This document shows positions 6,264 to 18,941 of a DNA stretch of 64,000 bases, in pieces. The stretch is from positions 11,731 to 75,730 of the forward strand of contig CAXBMO010000031.1 of the NCBI GenBank assembly GCA_963977015.1. Reading direction: 5' to 3'. The position numbers were made by a program, and so were the translations under genes. The DNA comes from an uncultured bacterium (lineage in GTDB: Bacteria; Verrucomicrobiota; Verrucomicrobiia; Verrucomicrobiales; DEV007). Numbering within the stretch: position 1 is the stretch's first letter; each line of letters begins with the position of its first letter. Below the pieces are notes generated by a model. The model was not told where the DNA came from, searched no databases, and saw only the letters and a program-made list of their open reading frames with translations.

Positions 6264-7046
6264 CTACCCATCAAATCCGCAATCCTCCAGGTGCCTCTCA
6301 GCCTGTGCTCCCAGACTCCAACGGGCGACGGTAAAAAATTTTGGCCAGAGCCCCGCTTCGCTCTTGGTCAAGAACCGTTTCGTCAGATACTGATAAGTTT
6401 GGGCTCGTATGTCACCAGAGTTTCTATGGGTCCGCGCCGTTTTTTTTACCTTGTCAATCGCGCGAATCACTACAGCTCGAGCGTCCTTCAACCTGGCACA
6501 ATTTAGCCCCAACAAGTCAATGGTTGCCTGAGCTCTGCACGAATCAATTTCAGCCGCCTCACAGGCATCTTTATCGACCTGCATCTCACCGTCGTTGATT
6601 CGGTATTTAAAAATTCGCGGAAACGCGGGAATTTCGCTGGGATTCAAGATGCGTTCGTCCAGGACCTCGCCTCCTTTCTCCGCGTCACAGCTGTAATTCT
6701 CAGTAAACGGTTCTCTGACACGGCCTTGGGCAATAGCTTGCGGGCTGGGATATGCCCTACCTCCGCGGCAACAAAGCCAGAGGTTATCCCAATCCAAATG
6801 CCAGTTGGATACAGAGGAGGAATCCGCCTTGGGATGAAAATGCTCAACGCATTGGTCTCCTGGCTTTTTGACGTTGATTTCGCAATAGGCGCAGAGTCCG
6901 CCTTGATCGACGTTTAAAATAGCAACAACTTCGTCATAGGCGGATTGGGCCTCGTCCTGAAACTGCTTCCACGTCCCTTCGGGGTTGGCGGATCGAAAAT
7001 CAGCCAGTCCTGACGGCTCTTCGGCGGACTTGGGAACGCGCTTCAT
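6264..7046 (-). CDS. ptuB: HNH endonuclease, PtuB / TIGR02646-like
   Basis: QGGLCAYCE, VEHFHPK, WDNLWLCC, CD..K and ATIDLLGLN motifs; ATGA overlap with the ATPase stop. Confidence 0.8.
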   Translation of the reverse strand: MKRVPKSAEEPSGLADFRSANPEGTWKQFQDEAQSAYDEVVAILNVDQGGLCAYCEINVKKPGDQCVEHFHPKADSSSVSNWHLDWDNLWLCCRGGRAYPSPQAIAQGRVREPFTENYSCDAEKGGEVLDERILNPSEIPAFPRIFKYRINDGEMQVDKDACEAAEIDSCRAQATIDLLGLNCARLKDARAVVIRAIDKVKKTARTHRNSGDIRAQTYQYLTKRFLTKSEAGLWPKFFTVARWSLGAQAERHLEDCGFDG

Positions 7047-8332
7047 TCTTTGGGCAACGCCTCTTCCCAACGGCGATTCTCGATCGCCATTTCCGCATCA
7101 TCCAAGGCGGGTTCCTCGCCTTGACTCCACTCCTGCAACATTGCCAAGAGCTTTTGAGCTTCGTCCAACTGGTTATCTGAAATGAGCTGCATCAGTTCCG
7201 TGATTTGCTCGGTTTTTCCGATACCTGGCGGTCTGCTATCTACCTTCATGATTCGCTCCAACATGCGAACACTCTCCGCGCCCTGACTGGCCGGAGGAGC
7301 ATGGCGCACTTTCCCATCTTCCAGGATGCGAATACAACGACTCTCCACAGTGGTTAGCACTTGAGGGCTGTGCGTGGTCACAATGAACTGAGTATTTGGA
7401 AAGGTGCGCTGGAGATCGGCAATTATGGTCTGTTGCCACTTTGGGTGGAGATGCAGATCGACCTCATCCACCAGCATGATTGCCTCAGACTCCAAGGGAT
7501 TGGGAAGCTGTGGATTCGCCTGGGCAAGGCGACGCGCAAAGTCCATAACGAGGGCAAGAATATTTCGATAGCCATCACTGAGCTGGCTAACCAACCGCTC
7601 ATTGGGAGGCCCTCCATTGTCTAACCACTGGAGGGCAGGAACTGATGGCGTAGTTGCTGTAAAATAGAACGACTGTGCTGGCTCCAAAATGGAAGTGACA
7701 GCTTGGCGAACACACTCCAAGGCAACCGAGGGCGCAATTTTTCTTTCAACCTTGAATTTTCGGAGTTCTTCGATCTCCTTTGCGTTACACCAGTCTATAA
7801 CATCTTGATAATTTGCTGCGGCGTCGAGTGCGGTATTCCAAACATCTAATCTCAGAAATTCCTGATTCTTATCTGTAGCTTGAGGATCCTTGGTGAAGTT
7901 TCTCGACGATCGGTAGTAAGCCAGCACTGGAATAACCTCTTTGGAATCTGGGTTCTCGTACAATCGACTCCTCATGTCGAACATTTGATAGTCGATTTCC
8001 ATTTCTAAGCGGATTGGTAGATCGTCACTTTCTCGTTCTTTGATGAGTTGGTAAGGTAACACCCAATTCATCCCGCCGACCATTTCCAATGCCAAATTCA
8101 GTTTCTCTTTCTCTTCAGGAAATCGTATATCCTTTGTAAGGGAAATAACTCCTCGCTGAGTGTCATTTCCCAAATTGTCGGAGACCGGTAAAAACGCAGC
8201 AGCAATCGCATCCAACAACGCGGTTTTCCCTCCCCCGTTTACTGCCACGACCACCGACAAGTCTTTTTCGAACTCAACAGTTAGATCGTCGAAACAACGA
8301 AAATTTTGAATTTGGATGGACTTGAGGCGCAT
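7043..8332 (-). CDS. ptuA: AAA/ABC-type ATPase, PtuA-like
   Basis: IQNFRCF, Walker A NGGGKT, QLSDG, Walker B LVDEVDLHLHPKWQ, QFIVTTHSPQV. Confidence 0.82.
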   Translation of the reverse strand: MRLKSIQIQNFRCFDDLTVEFEKDLSVVVAVNGGGKTALLDAIAAAFLPVSDNLGNDTQRGVISLTKDIRFPEEKEKLNLALEMVGGMNWVLPYQLIKERESDDLPIRLEMEIDYQMFDMRSRLYENPDSKEVIPVLAYYRSSRNFTKDPQATDKNQEFLRLDVWNTALDAAANYQDVIDWCNAKEIEELRKFKVERKIAPSVALECVRQAVTSILEPAQSFYFTATTPSVPALQWLDNGGPPNERLVSQLSDGYRNILALVMDFARRLAQANPQLPNPLESEAIMLVDEVDLHLHPKWQQTIIADLQRTFPNTQFIVTTHSPQVLTTVESRCIRILEDGKVRHAPPASQGAESVRMLERIMKVDSRPPGIGKTEQITELMQLISDNQLDEAQKLLAMLQEWSQGEEPALDDAEMAIENRRWEEALPKE

Positions 8333-13592: not shown

Positions 13593-14431
13593 GGTTCCAA
13601 TAATACAGCCTTCCCTTCAAGCTCATCCCTCCCCATCGGCTGATAGTCTGCCGACGTGCACGACACCTGCATCGACTCCAGTTCCATCGAACCAAAAATC
13701 GTCGCGGACGACGCATCCGCCGCGTCACGCCCCGTCGCGATCCTCACCAGCCCGTTTGGCGAAGAGAGACGCGTCGGGTCAAACACAAACCACTGGTTCC
13801 CCACACACGCCTCAAAGCAGGCGTGAAAGTCGGGCGGTTGCAAATCGCAGGCATAGCCGGTGAAATAGCGCGCGGGAATCGATAGCGCGCGGCACAGGGC
13901 AATCGACAGGTGCGCGAAATCGCGGCAAACCCCGGCCCGGTCCGTAATCGTGTCGCTGGCCGACGTCCCCGCATCGGTCGAGCCCGAAACATAGTCGACA
14001 TTCTCATACACCCAGTCGGAAATGGCGCTCGCCTGCGCCAGGGGATGATCAATGTGGCCAAAATGCTTCGACGCAAACAGCCCCAGCCGGTCAGACTGGC
14101 AATAGCGGCTCGGGAAGAGATAACGCAGGGACAAACGCGACAGTTTCGTGATCGGAACGCTGTGAATGTCGCGAACCAGGCGCGAATCCGGATTCGTCGC
14201 CGCCGTCACCTCATAGGTAATCGTCAACCGCGTCAAATCTCCGGTATCGATCCTCACATACCGGTTTTGTCCCGTCTGGATCGGGAAAAAATCGCACTCC
14301 GCCCCCTGCGTCACCGTAAAGTTTTCGTCCGTCAGGGTCTGGTTACCGGTCGATAGCGCATGAAGATTCAGCAGCATCGTGCTGCGGTAGTTCACCTTGT
14401 AGTGAAGGTTGGCTGCAATCTGAAAAGACAT
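13589..14431 (-). CDS. Transglutaminase family protein
   Basis: YLFPSRYCQSD, GVCRDFAHL, DFHACFE, FDPT, ATGRDAAD. Confidence 0.88.
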   Translation of the reverse strand: MSFQIAANLHYKVNYRSTMLLNLHALSTGNQTLTDENFTVTQGAECDFFPIQTGQNRYVRIDTGDLTRLTITYEVTAATNPDSRLVRDIHSVPITKLSRLSLRYLFPSRYCQSDRLGLFASKHFGHIDHPLAQASAISDWVYENVDYVSGSTDAGTSASDTITDRAGVCRDFAHLSIALCRALSIPARYFTGYACDLQPPDFHACFEACVGNQWFVFDPTRLSSPNGLVRIATGRDAADASSATIFGSMELESMQVSCTSADYQPMGRDELEGKAVLLEP

Positions 14432-14573
14432 CGCCCTATCATCGTTCCTTCCGGAATGGGGTAAAGGTAAGAATCGAAAACAAACGCAGGGTTCGGAACC
14501 CTCAGATTTCAGCCGACTTCAGCCCTCGCTCCCCTTTTGCCTTGCGCCTTTCCGCTCCGCCCCATATTTCAGA

Positions 14574-14747
14574 ATGGCCAAGACCCTTTGTGACTACGCA
14601 AAACGTGACCTGGAGAAATACTCGGAAAAACTCCGGGACGGCGCCGCGCCCGAATACCTCTGCAAAAAATGCGCCCGCGTAGCCCACCAAAAGAAGCTAC
14701 TCTGCAAGGCCACCACCTTCCGCCAACGTTTGGCACCTCGAAACTAA
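14574..14747 (+). CDS. Small basic Cys-rich protein (57 aa, below the ORF-track cutoff)
   Basis: Manual translation MAKTLCDYAKRDLEKYSEKLRDGAAPEYLCKKCARVAHQKKLLCKATTFRQRLAPRN; four Cys including CxxC. Confidence 0.6.
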   Translation: MAKTLCDYAKRDLEKYSEKLRDGAAPEYLCKKCARVAHQKKLLCKATTFRQRLAPRN

Positions 14748-14844
14748 AAAGCAGGCGCAACAAGCCCCAATCAACCAAAAGAAGACCCAGGGGGCGAACG
14801 CACGATAGAAAGTCAACACCGCCTCCTGGCCTGCTTGATTGTCA

Positions 14845-15136
14845 GCTGCGTTTGGGAATCCGCCGAGACGAAGTTCACCTCGCCAGTAGAAGCCGAAAAG
14901 GGCCATGGCGGATGAGCCAGAACAGGATCGTGCAACGCGTGATGACTGTGGCATGGCTGAGCCAACAGGGAGTGCCATCGATCGAACAAATGTGGATCTC
15001 CATTCGCTACCCGGACGGACCCAAGAAAGTGCCGAAAGGCAAGTCCGCTAAAGCATGACGAATCGGAACCGCCGGCTACGGCCCCGTACGGCCGGTGATG
15101 TGGGGGGCTGAAGTTCGAACCTTCAGCCTACCCGAT
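14845..15136 (+). mobile_element. 5'-truncated group IIC (attC-targeting type) intron: maturase C-terminus plus domains V and VI
   Basis: LRLGIRRDEVHLASRSRKGPWRMSQNRIVQRVMTVAWLSQQGVPSIEQMWISIRYP (stop 15058); DV GAACCGCCGGCTACGGCCCCGTACGGCCGGTGATGT with CGC triad; DVI GGCTGAAG...CTTCAGCC ending TACCCGAT. Confidence 0.8.
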
Positions 15137-15196
15137 TAGCCCTACCCGATTAGCCCTACCCGATTAGCCCTACTCCATTTGCCCTACTCCATTTGC
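15127..15196 (+). repeat. 5 x 14-nt tandem repeat at the intron/cassette junction
   Basis: 3 x CCTACCCGATTAGC followed by 2 x CCTACTCCATTTGC. Confidence 0.9.
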
Positions 15197-15783
15197 CGGA
15201 ACCAATCACGCAATGAAAGCTGAAGGCGTAAAACCTCATCTTCAGCAAGCGGGCTGCAATGAGCAATAGGACCGCGAAGCGAATTCAGATTTCCCATGAT
15301 CCGCTCTACCGCCTTCGTGCTGGTAAGAATCCCTCCAAATAGATCCCAATTGCCGGTGATGATACCAGAAAGCTCGCCAAAGGTTGTGAAGTCTAGTGGA
15401 TCGTCCGAGCGAACGGTCATTCCGCTGTCCTTTTCTCGTTTGATCCTTTTCTTCACTTCGCCCTGAAGATGTTGGTTTACCCGTGAACCATCCCACCAAT
15501 TGGCTCCTTCGGTATCTTCCAATGTGTCCGATATTAACTCTCGAATGCTCTTCTCTAGACAGTAAAAAATCTGGTAGTGCCTAGCCATCTCGGCGGCTTC
15601 CTTCCGCACTGCCCGATCAAACTGTGAGTAGTACTGCTGCTGCTCCTCTGATGTTGAGCCTTCAGTGGTGTGCCCGAGTTCAATATCCTGCTCCCGCTCA
15701 ACTCTGACGAGATCCTCGGCGATGAGCTGATTTGTCATCCCGAACACCTTGATTGCTGCTTCCTTTTTGCTAGTCGAGCTCAT
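15184..15783 (-). CDS. Swt1-like HEPN domain protein (putative RNase)
   Basis: FYCLEKSIRELI..L, NWW, DFTTFGEL..II..NWDLF and the Rx4H motif RGPIAH. Confidence 0.75.
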   Translation of the reverse strand: MSSTSKKEAAIKVFGMTNQLIAEDLVRVEREQDIELGHTTEGSTSEEQQQYYSQFDRAVRKEAAEMARHYQIFYCLEKSIRELISDTLEDTEGANWWDGSRVNQHLQGEVKKRIKREKDSGMTVRSDDPLDFTTFGELSGIITGNWDLFGGILTSTKAVERIMGNLNSLRGPIAHCSPLAEDEVLRLQLSLRDWFRQME

Positions 15784-16423
15784 CACCGTCGAGAAGATTT
15801 TCCTTAAGGCTTTTGAATATCGCGTTGAAGACAGATATGTCAGACGTGGCCGGTAGGTTGAGGTTAATCGTGTATGATAGATTCATGCCGACACGATTTG
15901 AAGAGCTTGGGTTGTTTCCGACTTGGCGGTGGGGTTGAGGAAGCGTTATTGGACTCTGAATCGGCGAAGTCGACTCTTCCGCCGGAGCAGTGGTGCCCTC
16001 AAAATCAGCCAACTCCCGCAGATTTTTGTAGGTCCGAAGAATCAGAGATACAACATTCGAATCCGATTCTTGACCAGTCACTTGGACAACCAATCCCTTG
16101 AGTTCAGAGTCATTCAACTCGTGTGCATACTCGTTTGAGTCGTAGAGCGATTTGTACCCGAAGCGGATCGCCTCAGCGATTGCTGACCCAGCCTCGCTTG
16201 GGTTGCGGTAGCGGGTGTAAATGTCTGAGGGAGTTCCATCAGAATTCACAAATCCAATTTTCTTGAGAAAGGGGACAAGAGCGCGACCGCTTCCGCCCTT
16301 CATCGCAAGCTTGGTATTCACGAAATCCCCAGTCACCTTGCCGGGTGTCGCGGCATTGCTAATCTTCTCTAGGCACGTAGTAATCGTCCCTGGTGCTGCA
16401 AGATACGGTAGTGTGTCTGCCAT
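15770..16423 (-). CDS. DUF5343-like protein
   Basis: PYL..PG, ATPGKVT.DF, LKKIGFVNSDGTPS..Y..YR; C-terminal LSYTINLNLPATSDISVFNAIFKSLKENL; overlaps the HEPN gene by 14 nt. Confidence 0.72.
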   Translation of the reverse strand: MADTLPYLAAPGTITTCLEKISNAATPGKVTGDFVNTKLAMKGGSGRALVPFLKKIGFVNSDGTPSDIYTRYRNPSEAGSAIAEAIRFGYKSLYDSNEYAHELNDSELKGLVVQVTGQESDSNVVSLILRTYKNLRELADFEGTTAPAEESTSPIQSPITLPQPHRQVGNNPSSSNRVGMNLSYTINLNLPATSDISVFNAIFKSLKENLLDGDELD

Positions 16424-16433
16424 AATTTTTTGA

Positions 16434-16561
16434 GGCTAACGTCCAGGAACAGCCGCCGTCACCCGGAAAGCGCGCTTCGCTCCATTGATAAATTTCTAAT
16501 TACATTCCGCTTTTCTACACAGATCGCGGGTGAAAGGTCGGCCTGCTTCCTCTTGTTAGGT
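16434..16561 (-). other. Integron attC site (128 bp)
   Basis: Minus strand: R'' ACCTAAC (contains the upstream gene's TAA), L'' GGAAGCAGGCCG pairing with L' CGGCTGTTCC with extrahelical Gs, inner TCACCCG/CGGGTGA stem, R' GTTAGCC. Confidence 0.82.
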
Positions 16562-16864
16562 GTTTTGTTGGCCGACTGATTCGACCATATCATCAAAGAA
16601 ACAACTCACTCGCTTTTTCCACTTTAGTTGTAGTTTTTCGTTTGCCTTCTTGAAGTCGTTGGGAGGGTTTCCCTTCCCCTTGAATTCTGCGTAAAAAATT
16701 TCGACGACAGGTCGATCATCTTCTCCGATTCCACTGATCAGTCTTTTCGCATGCCTTTCCCAACCGGATCTGGCGTCCAAACTTAAATCCTTCCAATCTA
16801 CAGTATGGTATCCAAATCCAGCAAAGTGATAGTTCAGTAATTCTCCAATTGTTTTTCTCATCAT
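16556..16864 (-). CDS. Hypothetical protein (integron cassette 2)
   Basis: 102-aa AT-rich ORF lying between two attC sites; stop codon falls inside R''. Confidence 0.6.
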   Translation of the reverse strand: MMRKTIGELLNYHFAGFGYHTVDWKDLSLDARSGWERHAKRLISGIGEDDRPVVEIFYAEFKGKGNPPNDFKKANEKLQLKWKKRVSCFFDDMVESVGQQNT

Positions 16865-16914
16865 TTAGATTGTTAATTCCCCAACTTTCGACTCATTCCC
16901 TTTTTATCTTCTTC

Positions 16915-17040
16915 GCCTAATCGTCGAAGTCATCCTACACCTGACCGAGGGCGCGCTCCGAAATCTGGGTTGATGGATGGATGGTCATGATGCTCTCGAC
17001 TCGGGGTGGGTCTGGCGTTAGGATCGACGCCTTGTTAGGC
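16915..17040 (-). other. Integron attC site (126 bp) with a one-base insertion in R'
   Basis: Minus strand: R'' GCCTAAC (contains the DUF4145 stop), L'' GTCGATCCTA pairing with L' TAGGATGAC with an extra G, R' reads GATTAGGC. Confidence 0.78.
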
Positions 17041-17697
17041 GCATTCAGCCTCGGGGGACTTCGCCTTGATGTTTTCCAGAAGCTGCTCGACACGGGCGAC
17101 CTGCATTGGCGCTGAATAGACATATTCAAGCACGGCCTGACAAAGTGCGGCCAGAACTGGAACCTCATCGTCCGTTAGTTCGCCTAAATCTGCGTGCGCT
17201 CCGACATTTCGTAGTTGCCGGAGTTTGTGAGCCATGTCGGCTAGATTCTTTGGAATCTCGTTGCGAGTTGCGAGATCCTCCAATCTCTTATGGAGAATAT
17301 CGCCATTTGCGTTCCGATCGTCACAGACGGCGTCCAGAACTCGGCCCAGTAAGACTGCGTAGGCGTTCGCGGAGATAGTGGAAACCTGTTCGGCTGCTCT
17401 AAACTCCTTTTCGACACTGGCAGGAAGGCCCTCAACCCCCTTCTTCTCGTTGGGATAAATTACTTTGCCATGCCAATCCTCTCGGTCCATTCCGTCATGC
17501 CAAAAGCCAGACCGGATAGTTACTTCTCCGCACTTCGGGCAAGACAGTACCTGGTAGATGGTTCCGGATTCATCCGGAGGGCCATCTTCTCGATAATGCG
17601 TTATAGTGTCGGACACAGACCCGATAACACGCATCGCGGCAAAGTTCTGGCACCTTCGACATTCGATTTCTTCAGAATAGGTCACGCCTTTTGACAT
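17035..17697 (-). CDS. Zn-ribbon + DUF4145 (HEPN-like) protein (integron cassette 1)
   Basis: CRRC and CPKC pairs; LP..V..EF..A, NAYAVLLGRVLDAVC and LRQLRNVGAH (Rx4H). Confidence 0.78.
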   Translation of the reverse strand: MSKGVTYSEEIECRRCQNFAAMRVIGSVSDTITHYREDGPPDESGTIYQVLSCPKCGEVTIRSGFWHDGMDREDWHGKVIYPNEKKGVEGLPASVEKEFRAAEQVSTISANAYAVLLGRVLDAVCDDRNANGDILHKRLEDLATRNEIPKNLADMAHKLRQLRNVGAHADLGELTDDEVPVLAALCQAVLEYVYSAPMQVARVEQLLENIKAKSPEAECA

Positions 17698-17724
17698 AGC
17701 TGTGCGGTCTCTCTAGTTTCTTTC

Positions 17725-17795
17725 GCCTAACTGGGGCTATCCTGCATTTCTGCAGGGATATCCTTTTGTAGTCAACATTCCTGCAGGGAGATTTG
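17725..17795 (-). other. attI-like site
   Basis: GTTAGGC core at 17731-17725, the exact complement of cassette 1 R''; preceded by direct repeats CTCCCTGCAGGAATG and ATCCCTGCAGAAATG rather than an attC stem. Confidence 0.55.
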
Positions 17796-17878
17796 GATAT
17801 TGAGAGAGGGGTGCGGAGGAGGGGGATGTTGAACTTTCATGACCGGATTTTGCGAATGAGCTGCTACCTGAAGTGGGA

Positions 17879-17906
17879 ATTCTATTGCGGTGCGAGGCGG
17901 TGTCAA
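17879..17906 (-). promoter_or_regulatory. Sigma70-type promoter facing the cassette array (Pc-like)
   Basis: Minus strand TTGACA-N16-TAGAAT, about 150 bp upstream of the attI-like core. Confidence 0.6.
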
Positions 17907-18482
17907 GGGTTGGGAGTCGATCCTGGCTGAACTCGCCAAACTGGTGATCAACGGAACATTCCCGGAAATTATCCCTGCAGATTTGTCAAAATATCACAGA
18001 AACTGTGGTGAGAGGTGGGGTGACCCATACAAAATCCTCCTCCCCTCCCACCTCTCTCCTCCTCACCTAGATTTGGCGTAGGGCGCTGTGGGATTTCTCG
18101 CAACGGCGCTACGACCGCTACGGGGCGTGGGTTGAGAGATCAAGCCACGCGGAATGATGGCTTTGGAGGCGTCCGGACATTGGATGGACCGCGCCAGCCC
18201 AACGTTGGGGCTTCACGGGTTCGATGATTCCGCTTCAACCGAACGCAGCCTGTCAGATCAGGGCGCTCGAGGTACTGATTCCGCAATGGGTTTTGAGGGA
18301 AAGGCAGGGTTGAGCGACACCCCACCCCTGCGCTCGTTGTCAGTTCCGCAACCAACGCGAAAACGTGGACAATTTACGCAAAGTGTCAGGGCAGGTGTGG
18401 CGCTTATATTGGTAATGCTGAGAGATGGCTCCTGTCAGCCATCAACGGCAGAAAACCAAAACCTTCATATCCCCCCAATTTT

Positions 18483-18941
18483 ATGAAAACATCATTGACG
18501 TCATGGGATCCATTTCGTGATCTGGACACCTTTAGTGACCGCCTTTCACGCGCGATGGGAGGTCGAGCTTGGCCAGGCGACGGAGAAACGGCCCTGGCTC
18601 AGGCCGACTGGAATCCCGCCGCTGACATTACCGAGGACGAGCATGAATTCCTCGTAAAAGTGGACCTCCCCGAGGTGAAGAAAGACGAAGTAAAAGTAAT
18701 GGTGGAGAATGGTGTCTTGTCCATCTCCGGCGAGCGCAAGTTTGAGCACGAGGAGAAGGACGAGAAAAAGAAGGTGCACCGGATCGAGCGCAGCTACGGC
18801 TCCTACATGCGAAGCTTTCGACTGCCGGAGACGGTGGATGCAGAGGAGCTGAAGGCTGAGTTCAAGGAAGGTGTCCTTTCCGTCCATTTACCGAAGTGCG
18901 AGGAGACCAAGCCTCGTCAGATCGAGGTCAAAGTTCACTAG
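18483..18941 (+). CDS. Hsp20/alpha-crystallin small heat shock protein
   Basis: WDPFRDL, WNPAADITE, VDLPEV, RIERSYGSYMRSFRLP, AEFKEGVLSVHLPK. Confidence 0.92.
   Translation: MKTSLTSWDPFRDLDTFSDRLSRAMGGRAWPGDGETALAQADWNPAADITEDEHEFLVKVDLPEVKKDEVKVMVENGVLSISGERKFEHEEKDEKKKVHRIERSYGSYMRSFRLPETVDAEELKAEFKEGVLSVHLPKCEETKPRQIEVKVH

Follow-up and report, generated by a model that had tools for sequence, protein, structure and literature searches.

The closest catalogued counterpart of the locus described here is PDC-M34, a member of a set of 145 computational candidates that were drawn from their embedding in BREX, DISARM and type I restriction loci and are presented as predictions; PDC-M34 itself has 0 mentions in the main text of that source (Payne et al., bioRxiv 10.1101/2024.01.29.577857). 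A study testing eight abundant candidates left M34 out (PMC12881386). Full-text literature searches, with most subscription papers and all supplements outside their scope, found nothing for 'DUF5343' or 'PDC-M34' and nothing for Swt1 combined with HEPN, phage and defense system; the PDC-M34 pair is apparently catalogued and without experimental test in the literature searched. The two protein types have better described relatives. An Abi2/Swt1 grouping of HEPN proteins is described in PMC3710099, and BrxA binds dsDNA through two helix-turn-helix (HTH) motifs (PMC9240713). In the HEPN-WH pair of the retron Kva2 (type IX), the toxicity of a HEPN dimer is attenuated by a bound protein with a helix-turn-helix, and abortive infection proceeds by rRNA and tRNA cleavage (bioRxiv 10.64898/2026.07.14.738597). 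HEPN abortive-infection RNases are already a known kind, and the switching of the PDC-M34 pair is the missing piece.

The source genome comprises 6.9 Mb in 51 contigs. Within the window, by which we mean the whole stretch of 64,000 nucleotides that was analysed, the pair consists of the following genes and parts:

16423-15770, minus strand: gene A, DUF5343 protein of 217 aa (PADLOC PDC-M34A), from open reading frame and profile matches
15992..16423, minus strand: residues 1-144 of A, two-lobed helical domain with the predicted B interface, from structure comparison and complex model
15791..15892, minus strand: residues 178-211 of A, an extended stretch and a helix, where conservation in A is highest, from alignment and model
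15786-15184, minus strand: gene B, Swt1-like HEPN protein (PADLOC PDC-M34B), from open reading frame and profile matches
15184..15786, minus strand: layout of B, N-terminal helix 4-33, linker and HEPN core, from AlphaFold2 model and structure search
15259..15276, minus strand: codons R171-H176 of the Rx4H motif (RGPIAH, residues 171-176), from sequence and alignment

Gene B encodes 200 amino acids from a GTG start or 199 from an ATG. It overlaps gene A by 17 nt (14 counted from the ATG of B), with no attC between the two, and no homology was found between A and B. Both proteins match the PADLOC profiles nearly end to end. A covers positions 1-207 of 208 in PDC-M34A with its residues 1-210 (E 2.8e-48), and B, encoded by the adjacent gene, covers positions 6-190 of 192 in PDC-M34B with its residues 12-199 (E 9.4e-39). 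The locus is a PDC-M34 member, and the pair is not new. The first-pass annotation had taken it for a system without a name, which these matches contradict; the PADLOC comparison that it foresaw as a possible refutation succeeds in part, as the match is to a catalogued candidate that is still uncharacterised as far as the searches reached. NCBIfam matched neither protein. What is new here is the fold likeness of DUF5343, a specific model of the complex, and a wider family with interchangeable nucleases.

The pair forms the third unit of a short array, which consists of a repeated head, a DUF4145 HEPN cassette, a 102-aa cassette and A-B. The elements around the pair are listed below:

17727..18013, minus strand: repeated array head, with copies on contigs C6 and C19 at 89-93% identity, from genome comparison
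17035..17697, minus strand: first cassette, DUF4145 HEPN protein of 220 aa, from Pfam and PADLOC
16915..17040, minus strand: attC of the first cassette, from reading and folding
16556..16864, minus strand: preceding cassette, 102-aa open reading frame, from the list of open reading frames
16434..16561, minus strand: attC that closes the preceding cassette, with a last core box at which the A-B cassette starts, from reading and folding
15127..15196, no strand: tract of five 14-nt units (three plus two), from the sequence and comparison with the intact junction in locus L007
14846..15136, plus strand: 3' remnant of a group II intron, antisense to the cassette, from genome comparison

The array head carries a promoter at 17906-17879 that agrees with 11/12 of the sigma-70 consensus and is directed into the array. 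Shorter pieces of the head occur elsewhere in the genome, and it resembles an integrase-less docking platform. The protein of the first cassette matches PD-T7-4 weakly over its full length (E 3.6e-8, PADLOC). It is a second HEPN-type protein of the array, with an Rx4H motif and N-terminal Cys pairs. The 102-aa open reading frame, which is low in GC (42%), has no match in Pfam, PADLOC or NCBIfam. Both attC sites were located by reading and folding, as a scan with strict core complementarity missed them. The bottom strand of the site at 16434-16561 forms a long hairpin (-21 kcal/mol); the site at 16915-17040 folds less cleanly and has a last core box that is off consensus at its first base, and it belongs to the same family as the attC that follows B in L007. 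No integrase lies beside the array, which is of the CALIN type, and the sole IntI above cut-off is on contig C1.

L007, from a Verrucomicrobiia metagenome-assembled genome, is the closest locus found (87% protein identity) and holds the complete cassette. There, a core box exactly complementary to the one preceding A stands directly after the stop codon, and an attC follows. At 5968-6000 of L007, the cassette opens its array; the stretch before it looks like a promoter and an attI, no integrase is adjacent, and the integrase of that genome sits on another contig. In the window, A-B begins at the core box of the preceding attC, and its own intact attC is missing: the core box after B lacks its last base and abuts the 3' end of an opposite-strand group II intron. 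The 14-nt tract spans the junction at which the B stop codon, the truncated first core box of the lost attC and the 3' end of the intron meet. As none of four DNA sequencing runs (one study, short contigs) crosses the intron-gene junction by 31 bases on each side, this tandem tract could be an assembly artefact. The remnant retains the last ~64 codons of the intron protein, with 72% identity to the full-length copy that contig C17 carries, followed by two terminal hairpins; Rfam did not detect it. A REP-like element had been considered for the segment after B and was rejected, the segment being the intron 3' end. The first 2.8 kb of C17 hold a full-length intron relative whose reverse-transcriptase frame is intact, and a further 3' remnant, also short, lies on C16 near 940.

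Because the remnant has taken the place of the downstream attC, the window copy is stranded; it appears intact as a coding unit, yet not excisable as a normal cassette. Of the claims made from this stretch beforehand, the two overlapping genes and a cassette with no internal attC hold, as does the cassette origin (complete cassette in L007, boundary signature at 15/79 loci), whereas the window copy lacks an attC of its own. Movement as a unit accordingly applies to the family, as exemplified by L007, and not to the window copy at present. The strand of the remnant, the separation of gene from attC and the position in the last cassette are those of group IIC-attC introns, which insert in the bottom strand, antisense, and come to lie between gene and attC of the cassette that ends an array (PMC3001079). 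The remnant differs in that just the 3' 290 bases are left, and by likeness it is a putative member of that lineage.

The linkage of the two genes is nearly complete. In an A-centred search (the best 80 of 118 genome loci), B lies downstream on the same strand in 79/80 loci, and the remaining one stops at a contig edge. In a B-centred search (90 loci, namely the best 80 of at least 472 metagenome matches plus 10 viral ones), A lies upstream in 87/90; of the other three, two start where the contig does, and L179 is a true orphan. In both sets A comes first and the genes nearly always overlap. The partner is DUF5343, with a helical model, in all 138 aligned members. The pair is thereby bicistronic and conserved, as type II toxin-antitoxin pairs are. 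The proposal of the first-pass annotation that the genes are a functional pair is supported by this linkage. At L179 (1343-1996, plus strand) an intact B homologue stands without A; upstream of it lies an unrelated opposite-strand open reading frame that resembles, by eye, a mobile-element replication protein.

The A-B pair is found sporadically in hosts of many phyla. In counts that each include the seed genome, DUF5343 scores above cut-off in 2/401 genomes sampled from the phylum of the window and in 7/401, 10/401, 12/391, 22/196 and 8/196 genomes of five other phylum samples. An exact cassette-boundary signature flanks the pair in 15/79 loci, mostly of Bacteroidota (mean 0.7 and maximum 5 in 2000 shuffled pairings). 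Complementary core boxes flank the pair in L047, L051-L054, L058, L067, L076, L077, L082, L083, L085 and L086, again mostly Bacteroidota, which gives these loci the look of cassette-like elements. IMG/VR contigs carry 10 and 11 loci; two other viral scans were empty, and annotated phages and E. coli genomes gave no match. Across the loci there is no third conserved gene beside the pair and no conserved BREX or reverse-transcriptase neighbour. Enrichment of defence genes beside the homologues is modest and not significant: PADLOC profiles match 20/150 nearest neighbours and 9/137 control open reading frames (odds ratio 2.2, p 0.077), the controls coming from four genomes of one phylum with crude calling of reading frames. 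Elsewhere in the window, at 6264-8332 on the minus strand, a PtuA-like ATPase (PADLOC E 1e-107) is followed by a 268-aa open reading frame with an HNH-like motif (by eye); this region is a probable Septu system.

Structurally, B is a HEPN protein. Pfam HEPN_Swt1 matches it above cut-off (E 7.5e-12), and its AlphaFold2 model (mean pLDDT 92) aligns best with the abortive-infection HEPN protein AbiF (Z 8.0, rmsd 3.8, 133 residues aligned), followed by the C-domain of yeast Swt1 (6.8), Csm6 (6.5) and other HEPN proteins, so that the top of the structural ranking is mostly HEPN. The AbiF and Swt1 matches agree with the Abi2/Swt1 grouping (PMC3710099). An alignment of 128 homologues shows no variation at R171, I174, A175, H176, N168 and E78, nor at R126, E184 and R187. 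The Rx4H motif RGPIAH, noted as intact on first inspection, is confirmed by the invariance of R171 and H176 and falls within the Rx4-6H definition. B is likely an active RNase. A PDB sequence search with either protein or profile gave no match, the one row returned being a low-complexity artefact. In Foldseek searches of the PDB and viral libraries, in which SspB and AbiF ranked first, nothing reached E <= 0.001, and Rfam had no credible match within 14300-18500.

Protein A (mean pLDDT 89) is built from a helical domain (residues 1-144), a variable linker and a tail (178-211). This agrees with the layout given in the first-pass annotation, a globular N-domain, a linker, here of low confidence (pLDDT 57-77, residues ~141-180), and a conserved C-terminal module. 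Pfam DUF5343 covers residues 6-144 (E 3.2e-43), and the first lobe contains a winged helix (residues ~7-77). The top structural matches are two BrxA homologues (Z 6.1 and 5.9, rmsd 3.8, 138 and 144 residues aligned), and N.BspD6I (5.6), FokI (5.4), BpuJI (4.6) and SspB (4.2) come next. These six best chains form a coherent set with modest scores, aligning 130-144 residues at Z 4.2-6.1 and rmsd 3.8-4.7, and Z-scores of 4-6 are within the range that the tool calls common; in rows 7-9 the alignment is limited to 61-67 residues. The structural neighbours given for BrxA in PMC9240713 are the same set, N.BspD6I apart. As modelled, the DUF5343 domain resembles BrxA and the DNA-recognition domains of FokI, BpuJI and SspB. 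A comparison with a structure atlas returned unnamed clusters only. The N-lobe is basic across the family (+4.4), with K54 and R73 conserved at 93%; the N-domain of the A protein in the window is acidic (pI 5.4 vs a family median of 9.1). The tail may serve self-association or the docking of the N-terminal helix of the partner.

The two proteins were also modelled together as an A2B2 assembly. The model scores 0.74 (median of three runs) vs 0.00 for the best of 3 controls, on a scale whose mark is reached by 116/157 solved complexes and 2/215 mismatched pairs, counts that apply to an A2B2 assembly only approximately. The runs share at least 38% of contacts, and the pLDDT of the partners is at least 73. 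The PDB holds no complex of similar sequence. Confident contacts involve residues 4-10, 29-33, 43-55, 61-63 and 122-127 of A and residues 51-59, 83-92, 147-156 and 196-200 of B, and exclude the active-site motif of B and the tail of A. Residues 44-56 of A would form a recognition helix and residues 58-65 a wing, and the acidic surface of B is predicted to rest on these putative DNA-binding helices. The family-mean charge of the interface is +1.6 on A and -3.4 on B. Compared with the rest of each protein, interface residues are no more conserved in A (p 0.78) and less conserved in B (p 0.039). Direct binding of the RNase by DUF5343 is likely on the strength of the model, which is support and not proof.

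With the seed loci set aside, six phylum samples yielded 63 distinct DUF5343 loci. A tail like that of A is present in 27/63, and all 27 lie directly before a gene of a nuclease family; in L207, L212 and L222 the A gene is frameshifted. The partners are Swt1-like HEPN proteins in 16/27 (four motif subtypes), DUF4145-like proteins in 4/27 (Pfam below cut-off), with K replacing R in the motif, proteins with an RNECAH motif in 2/27 (one with a weak DUF4145 match), Ymh proteins in 4/27 (above cut-off, Rx4H-type motifs) and, in 1/27, a protein with a DpnII/MboI-type nuclease domain, a DNase family of different fold. BLAST detects no similarity between the partner groups, and none of the Ymh, DUF4145-like and DNase partners is matched by the profiles for PDC-M34B. 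The other 36/63 loci comprise 14 from Acidobacteriota, 5 TPR fusions, one fusion of Wzz-like type and one direct fusion. Among the remaining 15, three are close to nuclease genes of RelE-like, PBECR2 or NYN type. The 14 Acidobacteriota loci (L251, L253, L254, L256-L264, L267, L268) have a variant tail and form a clade in which 12/14 carry a conserved helical partner of ~155 aa, a non-nuclease pairing that looks vertically inherited; the two of these partners that were scanned have no Pfam match. In L227-L231 of the Bacteroidota sample, DUF5343 runs through a long acidic linker into TPR repeats, and response-regulator-like genes adjoin.

In a tree of 44 chosen N-domains, the 11 partner labels need 11 changes vs 30.4 when shuffled. 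Partner type is constant within each N-domain clade, which speaks for clustering and not for co-evolution or an order of events. The tail profile of the Swt1 clade scores 0 on the tails of the DUF4145-KxxxH clade and 7 bits on the DNase-paired tail. Profile-profile alignment links the DUF4145-KxxxH clade over the full length, tail included (probability 98.8), and at this level of sequence comparison the tails are homologous for the most distant clade. In L275 (979-1827, minus strand), a single case with a frameshift near its 5' end, an RNECAH HEPN core continues the reading frame of the DUF5343 N-domain and linker, and both the tail of A and the first ~40 residues of the partner are missing. 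That both pieces are missing together hints that the tail and the partner N-terminus are a docking pair. Amphipathic character is seen to a greater or lesser extent in the N-terminal helices of the partners, an observation of little weight, as no control set stands beside it. A word-index search for long fusions found none, and this blank is uninformative, since fusions, to TPR repeats among others, do occur in the genome sample. As one partner is a DNase-family protein of different fold, the modelled A-B interface cannot be universal.

Tentatively, and with the chances well below even, we propose that DUF5343 with its strand-helix tail is an undescribed sensor of the BrxA/FokI fold that has repeatedly been coupled to interchangeable nucleases (Swt1-type, two DUF4145-like and Ymh-type HEPN RNases and a DpnII/MboI-type DNase). 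One surface would both hold the effector and detect phage DNA or DNA mimics, and PDC-M34 would be one branch of a wider defence family.

For the A-B pair itself we favour, at a little under an even chance, a gated nuclease of the abortive-infection type, in which A holds B off until a trigger arrives. From the computed gene linkage, invariant catalytic residues, fold resemblance and confident complex model we infer the RNase activity, its inhibition by A, the trigger, the target and any anti-phage effect. B would dimerise to give a HEPN ribonuclease. A would bind B directly: the BrxA-like domain of A would set its basic helix-turn-helix face against an acidic patch of B, at a distance from the active site, and keep B off. 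An infection ligand, either phage DNA or an acidic DNA-mimic protein, would compete for this face of A and displace B; the freed B would cut host tRNA or rRNA, and the infected cell would stop growing. Throughout, the conserved tail of A probably keeps A and B tethered. The patchy spread, the boundary signature, the nuclease-family gene after all 27 DUF5343 genes with this tail and the embedding by which PDC-M34 was defined also favour this reading. Weighing against it are the modest fold scores, an interface no better conserved than its surroundings, the acidic N-domain of A in the window, intact B genes beside a broken or absent A, the non-significant defence-neighbour enrichment and the DNase partner. 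The first-pass reading of DUF5343 as a protein controlling an RNase effector is retained with respect to the functional pair, the intact HEPN motif and the binding that the model makes likely; its unnamed status is not.

Activation by A is a conceivable alternative that we consider rather unlikely. B would be inert alone, and A would recognise a feature of invading DNA and cluster or reshape B into an active dimer, much as in a split restriction enzyme, with a recognition domain to which either an RNase or a DNase can be joined. The resemblance of A to the recognition domains of FokI, BpuJI and N.BspD6I, the relative paired with a DpnII/MboI-type nuclease domain, and an interface that avoids the active site are all consistent with this. 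Gene breakage leans the same way, with A broken or absent beside an intact B in 6/64 informative B-centred contigs (16 edge contigs left out), the clear orphan L179 among them. A strictly lethal toxin would not predict intact B without A. Conversely, B is broken beside an intact A in 4/79, so that breakage is roughly symmetric, each search favouring intact copies of its own query; the pattern may also come from assembly errors, search bias or translational coupling. The model, however, sets B on the would-be DNA-binding helices of A, which suits competition better than co-binding, and the overlapping order of A before B is against activation as well. Overlapping genes with the partner first are the usual antitoxin-toxin layout. 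Taking gating and activation together, an anti-phage role of the pair is probable.

The two-gene overlap and the carriage on cassettes would also suit a type II toxin-antitoxin addiction module that stabilises cassette arrays and islands, an explanation that we regard as unlikely. A would then neutralise B and act as autorepressor, and nothing specific to phage would be sensed. The weak signal among defence neighbours points in this direction, as does the combination of one DUF5343 family with many nuclease partners, which is seen in promiscuous antitoxin families. In the NetFlax network, one antitoxin partner family is reportedly coupled to several unrelated toxin families, and DUF5343 may be seen as analogous to these domains in joining one partner family to several unrelated effector families. 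DUF5343, Swt1 and Ymh are absent from 2 NetFlax supplementary files (PMC10440598). The module is weakened by 47 divergent non-cassette upstream regions, in which no shared operator (dyad, repeat or 6-mer) rises above shuffles, a comparison of low power. Likewise, tblastn with five different A proteins found no match in 72,556 plasmids, and A has no promoter match of its own upstream in the array, where the pair would depend on the array promoter. Typical type II proteins are, moreover, smaller than A and B. A non-lethal regulatory or RNA-processing pair, with A as transcription factor and B as co-regulated RNase in a stress unrelated to phage, gains something from the DUF5343 clades without nuclease partner (the 14 Acidobacteriota loci, the 5 TPR fusions) and is very improbable given the sporadic, cassette-borne spread of the A-B clade across many phyla, with no conserved third gene and no detectable operator.

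If the gated-nuclease model is true, a DNA-recognition fold of BREX, Ssp and type IIS systems has been turned into an RNase gate, which would provide a two-gene route from the sensing of foreign DNA or a DNA mimic to growth arrest. The swapping of partners defines several further candidate systems beyond the current PADLOC definition of PDC-M34, and through it DUF5343, so far little more than a name, gains a testable function with specific residues to mutate.

With respect to composition, the locus is identical to PDC-M34, both profiles being matched by adjacent genes in the same order. As modelled, and at modest scores, A resembles BrxA, FokI, BpuJI and SspB in a two-lobed helical fold over ~140 residues (PMC9240713), and it differs from them in its 6-12% identity and in having a linker, a tail and a dedicated nuclease partner. 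B shares the Abi2/Swt1 group fold and the Rx4H motif with AbiF/AbiD and HEPN toxins (PMC3710099, PMC12165695). The AbiF structure (PDB 8vz6), however, is bound to an ncRNA, whereas the constant partner of B is a protein and no Rfam family lies near the genes. Unlike Type VII HEPN-MNT modules, which have a minimal nucleotidyltransferase as partner, B is paired with DUF5343. The Kva2 system differs in needing a reverse transcriptase and msDNA, there being no conserved RT neighbour at A-B loci, and its WH protein binds a HEPN without Rx4-6H by two alpha-beta domains near the active site. As a HEPN dimer restrained by a helix-turn-helix protein, the Kva2 HEPN-WH pair is nevertheless the closest functional analogy to, and a functional precedent for, the gated-nuclease reading of A-B (bioRxiv 10.64898/2026.07.14.738597).
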